A DNA stretch of 64,000 nt from an uncultured Gammaproteobacteria bacterium (GTDB lineage Bacteria > Patescibacteriota > Microgenomatia > CAYQLK01): contig CAYUKQ010000003.1 in the NCBI GenBank assembly GCA_964445355.1, forward strand, positions 3,693-67,692. The letters are read 5' to 3'. Below, piece after piece: positions 35,774 to 62,889 of the stretch. Each line of letters begins with the position of its first letter. The stretch's first letter is position 1. Under the pieces are notes generated by a model, which was given only the letters and a program-made list of their open reading frames with translations, did not search any database and had not been told where the DNA came from. The position numbers and the translations under genes are program-made.

Positions 35774-36630
35774 AATTTTTGATCAAGAAGAAAATCAGAC
35801 GAGCGAAAAATCCGATGGCGGTAAGGACAAGCAAAATTAGGGTGTCTGAGAAGTTGGGAATTTCTAAAAGGCAGATTTTGGTCTTTTTTTCAATATTAAT
35901 GACTGGTGGTTTAACGGTTTCGTTACTGTCAGAAGGCAGAAGTCTGTATCTGCTGTCTTTTTTGCTGGCAGTGGCGGCAAGTTTGGTAACAATATGGGTG
36001 TTAAGAAGAGATCTGGCCGGAATTAAATATTTTGTATTGCCGATCTTGCCGTTTTTCTTCACGTTTGCAATGGCGTTGTTTTTTCAGTTACTACCGGAAA
36101 GATGGTTGACCAGATTGCCGTTTATGGCAGTGTATGGGGTGTCGATATATTTAATATTTCTTAACCAGAATGTCTACAATATTGCGGCTATCAGGACGAT
36201 TGCGTTACTGCGTGCAGCTCATTCTGTGGGGCTATTATTTACACTTATTTCGGTTTTTATTATTGCCAACGTCACATTCTCTTTAAGATTTAATTTTGTA
36301 TTTCTAACGCTGATTTTGACGACAATTTGCGGATTGATGATTTTTCAGACCCTCTGGTCATTCGAGTTGGAGGATTTGCTAACTAAGCGACTGCTTAAGA
36401 TGACGTTGGTTTTGACATTGATCGTTTCACAAGTCGTGCTGACTTTGTCCTTTTGGCCAGCTGAGCCAACGGTTCAGGCTATAGCAGTCACAACGGCGGT
36501 GTATATGTTACTGGGTTTAAGTCAGGCTTATTATTCGGAACGTTTGTTTCGACGAACGGCGATTGAATATATTTTGTTGGGAGCAGGGGTTTTTGTTCTG
36601 CTATTTCTGACGACCAGCTGGATCAGCTAA
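35770..36630 (+). CDS. Hypothetical polytopic membrane protein (about 8 TM), ATGA-overlapped with ruvC
   Basis: Multiple hydrophobic segments; no recognisable domain. Confidence 0.55.
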   Translation: MKFLIKKKIRRAKNPMAVRTSKIRVSEKLGISKRQILVFFSILMTGGLTVSLLSEGRSLYLLSFLLAVAASLVTIWVLRRDLAGIKYFVLPILPFFFTFAMALFFQLLPERWLTRLPFMAVYGVSIYLIFLNQNVYNIAAIRTIALLRAAHSVGLLFTLISVFIIANVTFSLRFNFVFLTLILTTICGLMIFQTLWSFELEDLLTKRLLKMTLVLTLIVSQVVLTLSFWPAEPTVQAIAVTTAVYMLLGLSQAYYSERLFRRTAIEYILLGAGVFVLLFLTTSWIS

Positions 36631-36639
36631 CGCCCGTTT

Positions 36640-37990
36640 AGCTTTCTGTATATCCTATAGTAATTAAATAAAATTAATTCTCATTGATCGTAATGGGTCT
36701 TGCGGATTGAGAGAAATTTCTATTGAGATCAAGACAATTAGAAAAGATAAGAGAAGGGGTGAAAAGAGAAAAATTGGATACCGATATTGAGATAGGGAAG
36801 TAAGGCGATTTAGCTTTAATGTTTGAATTTTTGATATAGTTTGATATACTTGTGAAAAATAGCGTGAAAACAAGTGTGAAAACTGATGACAGTTAAAGGC
36901 GGGGAGTGACAAACGTGTGTTTGTGGATAACTTATTTTGATCGTAGCTGGTCTTCGTCTGTTTAAGTAGGTGGTCATCTTGCCCTGTGTGATGCTTACAA
37001 GTATTGTTCTCTGTCAATTAGGTTGGAGTATGAAAATAGCTTTAAAATTGAGTGTTTATCCTATTGTAACAATCTAAATTATTAACATAAGACTCGAATA
37101 TTATAGGGTCTATTTAGCCTTGAATGCAGAGGTGTGTTGGTATCAGGTAGTAAGGGTGTAGGGACTAATAGCATTAATCAAGAACAAGGTAAAAGGATAG
37201 ATTGATTGAGCTTGTTATCTAGATCTGCACTGCTCCCAAGATAAGTGAGTCAGAAGTAAAAAATGATATGTCGTACAATATAACTTTTGCGACGTAAAAT
37301 AAAAAAAATGGAGTGGGGTTGAAAACCAATAAAAATTAGAAAAAACTTAAAAAAATGTTTTTTGAAAATTTTTTTTCTTTGATATATTTTGATTCTGCTT
37401 TCTTTTTTTCTGGGCCTATGATGATTAATTTGATATAGTTTTATACAATTGTGTAAATTTATATATTTTTTGCGGGATTTATGAGGTAAATGGCTGTAAA
37501 AATTAAAATTTATCCGATAGACTACCCTGCCCGACTAATAAAAAGCCGTTTTAGGCCCAATCAGGGGCTTTTAGCCTCAAATACTCGGTATTTTACAGCT
37601 GAGGTGGTATAAATCTTACTTGATTCCTGGACATTAAATATTCGGAGGCCAAATACTTGTTTGTTAAAAGGATTGTTTCGGAGATTATCGGTTTCTTGGC
37701 AAAATTATCCATAATCAGGCGGATTGTCTTGCTGAGTCTAGTCGTTGCAGTGCTTGCAAGCGCGACCGCTTGGATTGTGACTCAGGATGTGTCGTGGGCT
37801 TATGTAACGTTGTTCCTTGGAGCTTTTGCTTGGGCGGCTTTTGGTACCTCTGTTACACAAATCTCTCGGCTTGATTAAGGTTTTCGTCGCCTTGTACCGG
37901 TTTTTTAAATCTTAACCCACTATTTTTTGATGGGTTTAAGAATTGACTGACCGGTTTTTCTTAAAAAGTGATATGTCGCACAATGTGATA
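36640..37990. other. 1.35-kb AT-rich non-coding region with a perfect DnaA box (36922-36930 TGTGGATAA), several 7-8/9 DnaA-box-like sites, AT-tract (37320-37410), repeated TTGATATAGTTT and GTGAAAA elements and two copies of GATATGTCG(T/C)ACAAT
   Basis: No ORF over 75 aa on either strand; motifs read directly from the sequence. Confidence 0.5.
37657..37878 (+). CDS. Possible small two-TM membrane protein (TTG start, GGAGG RBS)
   Basis: 73-aa ORF with two hydrophobic helices; weak. Confidence 0.3.
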   Translation: MFVKRIVSEIIGFLAKLSIIRRIVLLSLVVAVLASATAWIVTQDVSWAYVTLFLGAFAWAAFGTSVTQISRLD

Positions 37991-38000
37991 GAGTGGATAT

Positions 38001-40359: not shown

Positions 40360-40703
40360 GCATAAGTTATGTAAAAAAAAATTGGGATAAGGATCTCAGG
40401 TGAAGACGACCGACTCGCATCTTTTGCTTCGAGCTAGCGCACTCTGAAGCTATAAAAATGCTAACGCCTATTGTTGAGCCGTCTTCACCTGATGTGACAC
40501 CTTCACTCGCTGTATATCCATAAGGTTGCGTGACTGGAGAGGTTTTTCCGTGAACGCTTTTTATGGGGACGCAGTTTGTGAAGGATAATCACCTTAAGGA
40601 TGGGGACTTTCTGCTCTTGTTTCGCTGTTGAGACTCAAGCAGAGAAAAGCTCTGGTGATTAGTGAGCTGGATTGTAGCAAATTGTGGTTAATAGTCAATG
40701 AAT

Positions 40704-40739
40704 AAGAAAAAGGCCCTGGTGCGTTTTGCACCAAGGCCC
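40704..40739 (-). terminator. Rho-independent terminator on the minus strand (GGGCCTTGGTGC-aaaac-GCACCAGGGCC then TTTTTCTT)
   Basis: 11-bp stem with one mismatch plus T-run on the reverse complement. Confidence 0.6.
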
Positions 40740-41497
40740 AGAGTTGTGGTCGGGGCGCAGTCCGTCAGGACCGAGCCCCGTCTATTTGCGGGTGGCATTT
40801 TCCGCTGCCGGCTTTGGCTCGCGATTGAGCCGGTGCCCACAGTCGGGGTTCATGCCCCCATGGTTTTACCTCGCGATCGAGGCCGCTGCCTTGTGCGTCA
40901 CGGCAGAAACGGTGGCGGCTGTTTTAAGGCGGCCACTTTTGGTCAATCGCAACGAGACTTTGTATCTCGGTGCGGGCCGGCCATATTCGCGGGCGGCCTT
41001 CGCTAGTGCCAGAGGATGACGGCACATTTTTGACATCTCCGGGGAGCGCGGACGGGCTGTCCGCGCTCCTTGCGGTCCCGAAAGCCCTCGGGACAACAGG
41101 TGAAAAAGGACAGGCACGGATAAGCCATAACCACTTTTTGCGCAGGTGGGTACCCGAGTCTCATGCGTAGAGACGCGAAGCCTGAACACCAGTGCTTGGT
41201 TGGTTTTGGCAGAGAGACACCAATTCTCTTCGTCCCCCCCCCAGAATAGGGAGTTCAGAGGAGTTATTAGTGTCAGCAAATCGTTCTCCTTGTCGATTCC
41301 GTGACGCATCCTGCCCCGCGCCCCTTTTCCCGACTAATCGGTAGGATCCCAGTGTGGGTAGTCCAGGGGGAAGCGCTTAGAGATATCAGTGTAAAAAACT
41401 GGATATTCCTAAGTGTTTCTCCCTGGATGGCTTTTGAAGCAGGAGTGCAAAGTCCTGATGATTTTTATATGTGCACAGCTAAAACAAATTAACTGCG
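40740..41497 (-). ncRNA. GC-rich (about 58%) transcribed unit of about 0.76 kb with no credible ORF: candidate structured ncRNA or decayed cassette. Contains a G9/C9 homopolymer (41234-41242) and two perfect hairpins (41043-41069, 41075-41094)
   Basis: Bounded by the consensus promoter (41504-41543) and the terminator (40704-40739); only ORF-like frames are low-complexity and overlap on both strands. Confidence 0.4.
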
Positions 41498-41503
41498 GGA
41501 GCC

Positions 41504-46319: not shown

Positions 46320-46841
46320 TTACTTCATCCGCCTGGTTTTTGCAATCACTGTTTGCCGGATGAAGACCGCCTGTTCTTGGATGATGTCTTCGGGCAGTCT
46401 GCTTACCGGGAAAAACTGTCCGACTGTGGGTGTGCTTTGAGCCAGTGCCGTGTGAATGATCGAGAGACCAACGCCGCGGGTAACTCCATGGAAGTACATA
46501 CCGGTGTGTGTCGGACGGCTGATGGACATGCCACCGAGCTCTTCGCTGACGATTCGGTTGATGGCCAGATCGAAGCGGTCGCCCGGCTTGTCGAGGTCTG
46601 TTGCACGCAGGAGCGTGCCCGGTACGTGCCATAGTCCCGGGAAGTAGGGGTCGTCCTCTTCCCTTTTGGTTAGGAGGACTTCCGACTGCTTCGCTGTCGG
46701 GTGGAAGATTACCAGTTCGATGTACGGCAGGGCCATTGTTTCTGCAATCGCGTAGAAAACTTGCGGTGGCAGAAGTTGGCCGTGAAAGCTGCGCAGGTAC
46801 TCTGCGACAGCATCATCAGACGGCTTGTGGTCTGTTCCCAA
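46320..46841 (-). CDS. Nudix-family hydrolase, GC-rich cassette gene
   Basis: Nudix box G(X5)E(X7)REUXEEXGU matched by GTLLRATDLDKPGDRFDLAINRIVSEELGG; about 58% GC. Confidence 0.7.
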   Translation of the reverse strand: MGTDHKPSDDAVAEYLRSFHGQLLPPQVFYAIAETMALPYIELVIFHPTAKQSEVLLTKREEDDPYFPGLWHVPGTLLRATDLDKPGDRFDLAINRIVSEELGGMSISRPTHTGMYFHGVTRGVGLSIIHTALAQSTPTVGQFFPVSRLPEDIIQEQAVFIRQTVIAKTRRMK

Positions 46842-58260: not shown

Positions 58261-59085
58261 ATGGATTTTACGCCCGCAATTAACAATAATCCGATCATTA
58301 AAAAAGAGGCAAAAAGGGCCAAGGGGGTGTTAATTCCCGCGTTGGCGCTGTTGGTGATGGTTGTAGTGTTGTTTACTGTAGGTTTTCCGAAACTGAACGA
58401 GACTATAGATTTGTATAAAAGTATTAGTACAACCAATCAGGATCTGAAAAATCTTGAAGAGAAAAATAAGCTTTTGACCTCGGAAAATTCTTCTCAGTTG
58501 TCGAGCGAAATAACATTATTAAACTCAGCCGTTCCCTCTTCTAAGGATGCGATTGGTCTGGTGGCAGGAATGCAAAGATTGGCCGCTGAAAATGGGTTAT
58601 TGATGCAGACTATTCAAGTTGCTCCTGGAAAACTTAGATATGTTCAGAAAGAATCCTCAGGCTCGGCTACGATTCAGCCTGTTTCTCAAGAAACAGCGGC
58701 TCAGATATCCGCTGATGAAGCAAGTGTGCCGAATGGATCGAAGTATGTCGATGGAGTGGAAACCTTTGATTTTCAATCAACAATGACCGGGCCTTATGCT
58801 CAAGTCGAGCAATTTTTAGCATCATTTCCTTTGACATTAAGACTAATTGATCTTAATCAAATAAATATTTCTACCGAAGGTGACGCTGCGTTAGGTATTG
58901 TAAGAGTGTTGGTTTCTGGTGTGGCCTATTACAAGAGCTTGCCGGCGACGTTACCTGATCCGAAAACACCGTTAGTCAAGCTGACAAAAGACGAGACTGA
59001 TGCGATTGCTAAGATCAAAGGTTATCGCGTGGTTTCTACTCTGCCGGATCTCAAATCAACAGGTTCTGTTGAAAATCCGTTTTAA
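58261..59085 (+). CDS. pilO: Type IV pilus assembly protein PilO-like
   Basis: Single TM, coiled-coil, position after pilN. Confidence 0.6.
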   Translation: MDFTPAINNNPIIKKEAKRAKGVLIPALALLVMVVVLFTVGFPKLNETIDLYKSISTTNQDLKNLEEKNKLLTSENSSQLSSEITLLNSAVPSSKDAIGLVAGMQRLAAENGLLMQTIQVAPGKLRYVQKESSGSATIQPVSQETAAQISADEASVPNGSKYVDGVETFDFQSTMTGPYAQVEQFLASFPLTLRLIDLNQINISTEGDAALGIVRVLVSGVAYYKSLPATLPDPKTPLVKLTKDETDAIAKIKGYRVVSTLPDLKSTGSVENPF

Positions 59086-59160: not shown

Positions 59161-59201
59161 ATCCTATAGTATTTGAATTAATGTCTAAATAATGATATAA
59201 T
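59161..59201 (+). promoter_or_regulatory. Motif-promoter module copy: ATCCTATAGTA then TTGAAT-N17-TATAAT
   Basis: Read directly; followed by AAGGAG at 59217. Confidence 0.6.
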
Positions 59202-59207
59202 CAAGGG

Positions 59208-59456
59208 AGTTAGCTTAAGGAGAAGCATCTTTTTGGTTGATGAAGAGTTGGTTTGGGTAGGTCGAGGTTTTCATCGAGATCTTCGGAGAATCCGATTCCC
59301 CTGCCGCTCTGATCGCAGAGCCGGATGCTGAGTTCGTGAGGTTCGTTCTGGCTCAGCGTGCCAGCGAATTACCGAAAGAGCTTGTCTCTGCATTGCAGAA
59401 GATCGCGTCAAGCCACGGTGTTACGCTGTAGCTGGGCACAAGGGCTCTCATTAATT
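59208..59456 (+). other. GC-rich (about 56%) mini-transcription unit of about 0.25 kb: candidate small ORF (longest ATG/GTG/TTG frames about 31-33 aa, none with a convincing start) or sRNA
   Basis: Bounded by the consensus promoter and the terminator; an AAGGAG element follows the predicted transcription start. Confidence 0.4.
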
Positions 59457-59491
59457 CCCCGTTTCAGGTTTTACCTGGCGGGGATTTTTTT
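59457..59491 (+). terminator. Rho-independent terminator (CCCCG...CGGGG with inner CAGG/CCTG, then T7) overlapping the 3-prime end of convergent trmD
   Basis: Hairpin plus T-run. Confidence 0.55.
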
Positions 59492-60118
59492 GCGATTTTT
59501 TTGGCGAAATTCCTTAATGATTTTGTGATGGCCTGTAAGAAGTACCTCAGGCACTTTTTGGTTTTTGAAATTAACAGGTTCGGTATAAAGTGGTGCTTCA
59601 GTCAAATCATCCTGAAAGGTTTCGTCAATTAATGAGTCCGGGTTAAGTACTTCCGGCTGAAGTCGTGTCACTGAGTCAAGGATTGCGAGTGCGGCTATTT
59701 CACCACCGGTAGTGATATAGTCGCCTATTGAGATTGTTTGGTCAGCCAAACCGTAAACGCGTTGGTCGTAGCCCTGGTAGTGGCCGCAAATTAAGGTAAT
59801 CGACTTAATCTTGGAGAATTTTGTCGCTGTTTCTTGGTTATATGTTTCTCCAGTTGGACAAAGAAGAATTATTTTGGTTTTTGGGTCTGACTGGCGAATA
59901 TGCCGGATGGCGGAGTCGATCACGTCTACCCTAAGAACCATTCCTCCGCCGCCTCCGTATGGTTTGCCGTCAACCATTTTTCTTTGTTTTATACCAAAAT
60001 CACGCAAATTAAATACATTAATGTTGATTTTATTGTCTTTGATCGCTCGACCAATAATCGAGGTTTGGGTATAGGTATTAATTATTTCTGGAAAAAGTGT
60101 AAGAACGTTGATCGTCAT
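59471..60118 (-). CDS. trmD: tRNA (guanine37-N1)-methyltransferase
   Basis: SPOUT-class TrmD N-terminus INVLTLFPE and the rpsP-KH-trmD gene context. Confidence 0.9.
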   Translation of the reverse strand: MTINVLTLFPEIINTYTQTSIIGRAIKDNKININVFNLRDFGIKQRKMVDGKPYGGGGGMVLRVDVIDSAIRHIRQSDPKTKIILLCPTGETYNQETATKFSKIKSITLICGHYQGYDQRVYGLADQTISIGDYITTGGEIAALAILDSVTRLQPEVLNPDSLIDETFQDDLTEAPLYTEPVNFKNQKVPEVLLTGHHKIIKEFRQKNRKKIPAR

Positions 60119-60706: not shown

Positions 60707-61456
60707 TCAAGCTTGGCTTTTTGTATTATTACTTAGGTTTTGAAGCGCAGCTTTAGCTGCTTCCTGCTGGGCTTCTTGTTTACTGTTGCCGGTTCCTGTA
60801 CCTGATACGACTCGATTGATCGAAACTTCAACTGTGAATGTTTTGGCGTGATCAGGACCGCTTTCGGATACGGTTTTGTAAAAAGGTGAACTTTTGAAGC
60901 GTTTTTGTACGGTTTCTTGTAGCCGGCTTTTAGGGTCGAGCAGTGAATTTTCTAAATCTTCGGACGGTTTTTTGAGTAAGGTTCGGAAAACGAATTTTTT
61001 GGCTGTGGAGATGCCGGAATCGAGAAAAATTGCTCCAAGTACCGCTTCGTATGTGTTGGCCAGAATCGATTTTGTCTTTACTCCGCCCCGTTCATGCTCT
61101 CCTTTAGAGAGGAATAGGAATTTGGCTAAATCCAGTTGAGTCGTCATGTCGGCCAGACTTTCGGTGCGGACTAGAACTGAGCGGTAGTGAGTGAGTATTC
61201 CCTCTTTTTGGTCCGGGTAAGTTAAATATAGCTGTTCAGAGACAATTAGTGACAGGACACTGTCGCCGAGGAATTCTAGTCGTTCGTTGTCGTGAGTAAA
61301 AACCGTATCCGGTGCCGATACTTCGTTAAGGTAAGATCGATGTACAAATGCATTAGCAAGAAGTTTTGGATTTTTAAACTTAACTCCGATTGCCTTTTCT
61401 GCTTCAGCGACTGGGAAATTGTCGTAAAGAAGTTCGGTATTGGTTTTTTTGGTCAC
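60707..61456 (-). CDS. rnc: Ribonuclease III
   Basis: NERLEFLGDSVL RNase III signature plus C-terminal dsRBD. Confidence 0.9.
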   Translation of the reverse strand: MTKKTNTELLYDNFPVAEAEKAIGVKFKNPKLLANAFVHRSYLNEVSAPDTVFTHDNERLEFLGDSVLSLIVSEQLYLTYPDQKEGILTHYRSVLVRTESLADMTTQLDLAKFLFLSKGEHERGGVKTKSILANTYEAVLGAIFLDSGISTAKKFVFRTLLKKPSEDLENSLLDPKSRLQETVQKRFKSSPFYKTVSESGPDHAKTFTVEVSINRVVSGTGTGNSKQEAQQEAAKAALQNLSNNTKSQA

Positions 61457-62541: not shown

Positions 62542-62889
62542 TTATACACAAAGGCGGGTGAGGACTTGGACAACCTCGTGAAGGTGTTGACGGTTGGTCT
62601 CGCCGAGCTGGCTGCGGCGAAGGATTGGGTTCAAGTGCTCTTCAACTAAATGCTGAGAGAGCAGTCGAACGCATTCGGGGTCGCGACGGTCAGGTTGGGC
62701 CAGACAATGCTGCAGTTCACGCTCATAGTTCCTGACGTTGGGATCGGGATTGACCAGTGAGTTCAGATCAAGCGCTGGGGTTTTTGGTGGGGTGTAGGTA
62801 TGTTTTGGCTGTTCTGCTGTTGGGGTAACCGTAGCAGCGACTGGGAGGCGCTTTGTTTTTTTGACTCTTTTTTTGTCTTTCTTAGACAC
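62542..62889 (-). CDS. Hypothetical basic protein, GC-rich cassette gene (GTG start, AAAGGAAAT RBS)
   Basis: 115-aa ORF, about 57% GC, own motif-promoter and terminator. Confidence 0.55.
   Translation of the reverse strand: MSKKDKKRVKKTKRLPVAATVTPTAEQPKHTYTPPKTPALDLNSLVNPDPNVRNYERELQHCLAQPDRRDPECVRLLSQHLVEEHLNPILRRSQLGETNRQHLHEVVQVLTRLCV

Follow-up and report, generated by a model that had tools for sequence, protein, structure and literature searches.

The window analysed here, a stretch of 64,000 nt, contains a miniature GC-rich unit in the 385-nt gap between a rightward 274-aa gene and the leftward trmD gene. The locus raises a simple question: does this mini-unit encode a small protein such as a toxin or short regulatory peptide, does it specify an sRNA, or is it an empty cassette, the options named by a sequence-only reading of the DNA? 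In our analysis the unit is likely a monocistronic gene that codes for a small acidic protein of lineage-restricted distribution and that, in the window, has become a pseudogene while keeping promoter and terminator intact.

Layout and expression signals of the mini-unit

Table 1. Features of the mini-unit and of its two neighbouring genes, in window coordinates
Feature	Position	Strand	Remarks
274-aa gene	58261..59085	+	behind pilM and pilN (pilO position); no Pfam match
promoter module ATCCTATAGTAT, 12-bp near-palindrome	59161..59172	+	abuts the −35 hexamer
sigma-70-type promoter TTGAAT-N17-TATAAT	59173..59201	+	score 10/12
Shine-Dalgarno sequence AAGGAG	59217..59222	+	10 nt 5′ of TTG 59233
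ancestral TTG start and now out-of-frame reading, 32 aa	59233..59331	+	
stretch with one extra base relative to all orthologues	59246..59257	+	GAGTTGGTTTGGG vs GAACTGA-TTGCG (alignment)
in-frame TAG in the conserved frame	59258..59260	+	polymorphic among strains
conserved frame, 56 codons and stop TAG	59261..59431	+	hmmsearch E 1.3e-31 to the family profile
intrinsic terminator, hairpin and T7	59456..59491	+	MFE fold; hairpin kept in four species
trmD, 215 aa	59471..60118	−	PF01746; convergent with the mini-unit

The order PilM_2, PilN, 274-aa gene is kept in all related loci, and 76 nt lead from the end of the 274-aa gene to the promoter module (ATCCTATAGTA at 59161-59171). Both the module and the promoter behind it are present as the sequence-only reading had described them, and both are conserved across species. 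The −35 hexamer occupies 59173-59178 and the −10 hexamer 59196-59201, the latter preceded by the TG of an extended −10 element (TGATATAAT). In the surrounding 3 kb, 6 promoter-like matches were found vs 5.4 in shuffled sequences, that is, no enrichment; the case for the promoter rests on its conservation across species and not on the promoter scan. Over four species, 8 of 11 columns of the module, 5 of 6 of the −35 hexamer and all 8 of TGnTATAAT are invariant, and none of 23 in the 3′ UTR; the regulatory signals are the best-conserved parts of the unit.

The AAGGAG reported earlier is also in place, and its counterpart in orthologues, AGGGAG or ACGGAG, is found at the same position. The stretch described as 56% GC has a GC content of 55.7% over 59250-59450, compared with 43.3% for the window, which ranks the body of the unit in the top ~4-5% of 200-nt windows. 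The terminator hairpin claimed to overlap the trmD stop forms in the MFE fold, with an outer stem of TCCCCG (59456-59461) and CGGGGA (59479-59484), an inner stem CAGG-TTTTA-CCTG and a T-run at 59485-59491; the trmD stop codon (complement of 59471-59473) lies in the hairpin loop. A simple terminator scan did not list this hairpin because of its internal bulge. Scans for tRNA and tmRNA revealed none at the locus. A transcription start near 59208 and use of the terminator are predicted from these signals.

The last trmD codons (KKIPAR*) constitute, on the opposite strand, the T-run and the 3′ arm of the terminator of the unit (59471-59495). Relatives of the same clade that have no unit retain both the hairpin and the IP(A/V)R ending of trmD; both features are missing from L018 and L020, where TrmD identity is lowest.

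The neighbourhood is also informative about the organism. The gene order is rpsP-KH-trmD without rimM, plus pilMN, and named relatives of the TrmD protein belong to the Patescibacteria group (47% identity). Two of the related loci, L012 and L013, come from the GTDB representative genomes CAYOLO01 and CAYQLK01. Gene content and order, together with the TrmD relatives, point to a small-genome lineage resembling the candidate phyla radiation.

A reading frame conserved in relatives and interrupted in the window

Syntenic loci were gathered from relatives whose TrmD is 62-80% identical to that of the window, and three more loci were reached through the small protein. A search of genome contigs with TrmD alone yielded no loci, and the same search with the small-protein alignment yielded 2. 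Three groups of loci carry an intact ORF: 65 aa in L005-7 (TrmD 80%, gap between the 274-aa gene and trmD 459 nt), 67 aa in L010-12 (TrmD 74%, gap 346 nt) and 68 aa in L013/14. Every intact ORF begins at TTG, 7-9 nt 3′ of GGAG, and all carriers hold the unit at one and the same chromosomal site. The unit is absent from L008/9 (TrmD 78%, gap 38 nt), L015-17 (76%, 60 nt), L018/19 (69%, 7 nt) and L020/21 (62%, 14 nt). A scar is present in L015-17, where the promoter module ATCCTATAAC-TTTG is still present and, behind it, the 3′ half of the terminator, which indicates that this lineage once had the unit and lost it by deletion. Since the loci with the lowest TrmD identity (62-69%, L018/19 and L020/21) are without both unit and hairpin, the distribution suggests gain in a common ancestor of the closer lineages and subsequent losses. 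Between the 274-aa gene and the promoter module, L005-7 have ~110 extra, relatively GC-rich bases (L005 3990-4107, minus strand) that are absent from the window and from L010.

The sequence-only reading had found no frame with a canonical start in the unit. This does not hold: TTG 59233 is conserved as the start in all orthologues, and GTG 59336 starts a 31-aa frame. A further frame had also been overlooked, which begins at ATG 59240, ends with the stop at 59429-59431 and comprises 63 codons, one of them an internal TAG (59258). Translated from TTG 59233, the window sequence begins with MVDEELVW, eight residues that match MDSEELIA or MDCEELIE of the orthologues, and continues with an unrelated basic tail up to the stop at 59329-59331. 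The change of frame is due to one extra base, whose exact site within the stretch given in Table 1 is ambiguous (the alignment reads GAGTTGGTTTGGGTAGGTC in the window species vs GAACTGA-TTGCGCAGGTC). The insertion is present in all five assemblies of the window species.

Downstream of the insertion, the conserved frame covers most of helix 1 and helices 2 and 3 of the ancestral protein; within it, GTG 59336 is the first start codon. The only alternative entry to it is ATG 59240, 17 nt from the Shine-Dalgarno sequence, and in four of the five assemblies (the window and L001-L003, which are 99.9-100% identical to it) this route is closed by the TAG at 59258. The fifth strain, L004, has CAG instead. 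In orthologues the corresponding codon is CAG (L005, L010) or ACG (L013). TAG is an ordinary stop in this genome, used by 17 of 49 long ORFs, and it is the own stop of the small-protein gene. In a word-indexed search of 5.8 billion proteins the 56-codon frame had a sole match, P0001, a 63-aa protein identical to the window frame except for Gln at codon 7; its contig is L004, a strain of the same organism with an open 63-aa frame. With ATG 59240 as its start, the allele of L004 may still be functional, although this codon lies 17 nt from the Shine-Dalgarno sequence. Both lesions were seen by alignment and were reproduced in assemblies of four different sequencing runs. The picture is thus of promoter, Shine-Dalgarno sequence with TTG, and terminator that are present and conserved, around a frame that is intact in orthologues and carries disabling lesions in independent assemblies of the window species.

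Over 1050 nt the window and L004 differ by seven SNPs, five of which lie inside 59162-59263, in the promoter and 5′ region. L001 and L004 have in common a CA/TG dinucleotide polymorphism immediately behind the −10 hexamer (59202-59203). It is combined differently with TAG and CAG, giving three haplotypes, which suggests recombination or recurrent mutation.

To compare codon positions, the frames of the window, L005, L010 and L013 were aligned. First, second and third positions are invariant in 30, 40 and 8 of 56 codons, respectively, third-position differences dominate in pairwise comparisons, and the Nei-Gojobori dN/dS is 0.17 for the window vs L005 and 0.06 for L010 vs L013. Such codon-position bias and dN/dS well below 1 among orthologues identify a protein-coding gene, not an sRNA. 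Conservation is therefore not limited to promoter and terminator, as it might have been, but extends to the body of the unit at the amino-acid level.

The window branch shows a relaxed pattern. Four otherwise invariant acidic residues are lost, the motif DSSDAEF, invariant in the orthologous lineages, reads DSPAALI, and dN to the outgroup is 0.40 for the window vs 0.29 for L005. Window-specific replacements number 10 vs 4 for L005, an excess that is not significant (binomial p 0.18). With dS to the outgroups saturated, the time of inactivation is not estimable.

These data support the following course of events. A gene with its own strong sigma-70-type promoter, Shine-Dalgarno sequence and intrinsic terminator, lying between the pilM/pilN cluster and trmD, would have encoded a protein like the 65-68-aa, TTG-initiated product of the intact orthologues, a predicted three-helix bundle. 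The 1-nt insertion just behind codon 6-8 cut the Shine-Dalgarno sequence and TTG start off from the conserved frame, and the CAG-to-TAG change in the window strain also closes ATG 59240. With promoter and terminator both intact, a transcript of ~285 nt is probably still produced from the locus, and its translation from the TTG start would yield only the 32-aa out-of-frame peptide. Low-level read-through of the TAG or re-initiation at GTG 59336 is possible. The frameshift and its out-of-frame product argue for a recently inactivated accessory gene; in combination with the nonsense codon, the signs of relaxed constraint and the loss of the unit elsewhere, they indicate that the gene is dispensable and was inactivated here.

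Properties of the protein and competing explanations

The intact protein has 65-68 aa, a pI of 4.0-4.7, a net charge of −7 to −12.5 and a GRAVY of −0.2 to +0.3, with no hydrophobic helix. AlphaFold2, run with a five-member alignment, predicted a three-helix bundle (residues 3-17, 29-41 and 48-60; mean pLDDT 84.5, pTM 0.67). The family comprises five 90%-identity clusters among 5.8 billion proteins and is itself undescribed. Neither the window peptide nor any family member had a significant match among Pfam, NCBIfam, PHROGs and PADLOC profiles. Searches of the PDB by sequence, with the single protein and with a profile, gave a best E of 0.1-0.3, to a condensation domain and not to a carrier domain. 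HMMER, applied exhaustively to 1.84 billion representatives, recovered the family and, beyond it, only P0122, a spurious repeat protein; Foldseek with the AlphaFold2 model gave best E values of 0.68 in the PDB and 1.3 in BFVD. No relatives were found in viral contigs, no further family member in the rest of the window and no partner gene for the small protein at the locus.

Several known types of protein were considered and rejected. The string ELPKELVSALQKIA..GVTL had suggested a truncated ribbon-helix-helix antitoxin, but there is no RHH match and the model is all-helical. A type II antitoxin more generally (RHH, HTH or HicB-like) is not supported by a Pfam or NCBIfam match, an N-terminal strand or a neighbouring toxin gene. 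Acyl and peptidyl carrier proteins (PP-binding, PF00550) are likewise small acidic helical bundles and share with the present protein a conserved D-S in the loop that precedes helix 2; however, no PF00550 match was obtained even at E 10, and the present protein has three helices instead of four. AsiA, Ocr and ArdA are examples of anti-sigma or anti-restriction proteins, small acidic helical protein-binding modulators or DNA mimics. The present protein (~65 aa, charge −7 to −12.5, predicted all-helical) resembles them in bulk properties only, there being no sequence or structural similarity and no phage context. On account of its charge and simple helical fold, the intact protein of the relatives may, tentatively, act as a nucleic-acid mimic or as a small protein-binding modulator, by attaching to a basic surface on a partner.

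Intact and conserved signals around a broken ORF could also be those of a functional small non-coding RNA of ~285 nt, the frame being incidental or the mRNA having been co-opted after the ORF broke. A GC content above the genome mean, an MFE slightly below that of shuffled sequences (z −2.2) and the complete absence of SNPs in 59264-59470 among the five strains are compatible with this, but the z-score lies within the range of ordinary coding sequence (−2.4 for the GC-rich stretch 1400-2200, −1.4 for a piece of gyrA) and far from the −10.6 of a structured region described below, and the absence of SNPs says little because the strains are 99.3-100% identical overall. RNAalifold gave only −29.9 kcal/mol over ~300 columns, with the terminator alone robust, in an alignment whose four sequences offer limited power. 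The Rfam scan that had been proposed, run on the entire window at gathering score and on the region with E values up to 10, produced nothing but terminator-shaped chance matches, the best of them with E about 2 and covering the terminator only. The families rdlD and NsiR1 share with the locus a terminal GC hairpin followed by a U-run, but their 15-16 bits fall below the gathering scores (39-50), and the alignment is confined to the terminator. With substitutions that follow the codon pattern, an sRNA is very unlikely. A gene that still functions, through programmed +1 frameshifting or TAG read-through, or from ATG 59240 with the TAG allele leaky and tolerated, is distinctly unlikely too. The ATG 59240 frame is open in L004 (63 aa), a +1 shift after GTA 59257-59259 would make the product exactly co-linear with the orthologues, and the overall dN/dS vs L005 is still 0.17; against this, GTA-G-GTC offers no slippery or hungry-codon context, which makes frameshifting or read-through improbable, no Shine-Dalgarno sequence stands within 5-10 nt of ATG 59240, the TAG is found in most assemblies and is a regular stop that the small-protein gene itself uses, and the DSSDAEF motif has been replaced.

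The small size of the gene, its own promoter and its patchy distribution would also fit a toxin, a component of a type I or II toxin-antitoxin system or a mobile gene cassette, and PADLOC returned weak matches to PDC-S12 (12-14 bits, E 0.008-0.03). The protein is, however, acidic and soluble, and strongly so in charge, without a hydrophobic helix; no partner ORF accompanies it, no antisense promoter is better than chance, Pfam, NCBIfam and PHROGs are without matches, and viral relatives are lacking. A type I toxin peptide, short, hydrophobic and paired with an antisense RNA, was rejected on these grounds, as was a known anti-phage defence protein, the best PADLOC match (14.1 bits, E 0.008) being to an internal part of PDC-S12. 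An integron-type or other mobile cassette is contradicted by the single chromosomal site in all carriers and by the failure to find flanking recombination repeats. We regard this group of explanations as highly improbable. Of the options named at the outset, the small protein was right in kind, given that the orthologues encode a conserved protein under purifying selection, while the soluble three-helix product without a partner gene speaks against a toxin or short regulatory peptide. The empty cassette comes close to the truth for the window strain as far as the intact promoter and terminator are concerned; the ORF, however, is present, broken by a frameshift and a nonsense codon.

The preferred reading, a pseudogenised small-protein gene, has ready parallels. 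Orphan small ORFs that become pseudogenes are common in bacterial genomes. Like the decaying orphan ORFs of reduced genomes, the mini-unit is a short gene that stands alone between a promoter and a terminator of its own and has a very narrow range, present in some close relatives and absent from others, with a deletion scar and with frameshift and nonsense lesions. It differs from such ORFs in that conservation is higher in the regulatory signals than in the coding sequence; these signals are intact in the broken copy, unlike those expected of a long-dead pseudogene. This preservation of the promoter around a broken ORF is perhaps the one point that might surprise a specialist.

The promoter module at other sites of the window

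The module is not confined to the mini-unit. The window has 3 exact copies of the 14-mer CCTATAGTATTTGA, and allowing up to 3 mismatches there are 14 sites vs 5.6 expected. Besides the mini-unit, the module precedes GC-rich units at 226-786, 926-1345, ~40.7-41.5 kb (−), 46320-46841 (−) and 62542-62889 (−); the rpsP operon has a consensus promoter at 60710 (−) that lacks it. Sites of the form (A)TCCTATAGTAT-TTGA were noted at 142, 872, 2230, ~36652-36654, 37058, 37107 (−), 41542 (−), 46911 (−), 59163 and 62969 (−), most of them preceding units with a high GC content for this genome. Three copies, on both strands (36652+, 37058+, 37107−), fall in an ORF-poor region of ~1.4 kb at 36630-38000. With a transcription start near 59208 the centre of the module would lie at about −41.5, and the module may be an activator or transcription-factor site that defines a regulon. 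A search of the literature on promoter motifs in Patescibacteria found nothing relevant.

The best module promoter of the window, ACCCTATAGTAT-TTGACA-N17-TATAAT at ~41543-41504, stands upstream of a region of ~800 nt at 40700-41500 (−) that adjoins gyrA, lies directly downstream of the promoter and reaches 64% GC. The region contains only compositionally odd ORFs, overlapping in several frames, and its MFE z-score is −10.6, vs −1.4 to −2.4 in the comparison stretches. Rfam searches, whether at gathering score or with E values up to 1, gave no match, and no tmRNA was identified. The region is a candidate for a large structured non-coding RNA.

A bolder combination of these observations would be a small regulon of GC-rich accessory units, the structured ~800-nt region included, that share ATCCTATAGTAT near −41.5, the classical class II activator position, with the acidic protein a new kind of regulatory or mimic protein, or with the broken mRNA kept for a role at the RNA level. 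We consider this scenario unlikely.

The mini-unit is best placed, then, as a conserved but dispensable orphan small-protein gene in decay, and not as a new RNA or toxin. It adds to the dark matter of an uncultured lineage with small genomes a family of small, highly acidic proteins, predicted to be well folded and without known relatives. Genes of this kind, with a TTG start and a length of ~65 aa, are missed by gene callers, and this one was called in only a few assemblies. The shared promoter module is the more useful lead, as it links the mini-unit to other GC-rich units and could define a regulon.
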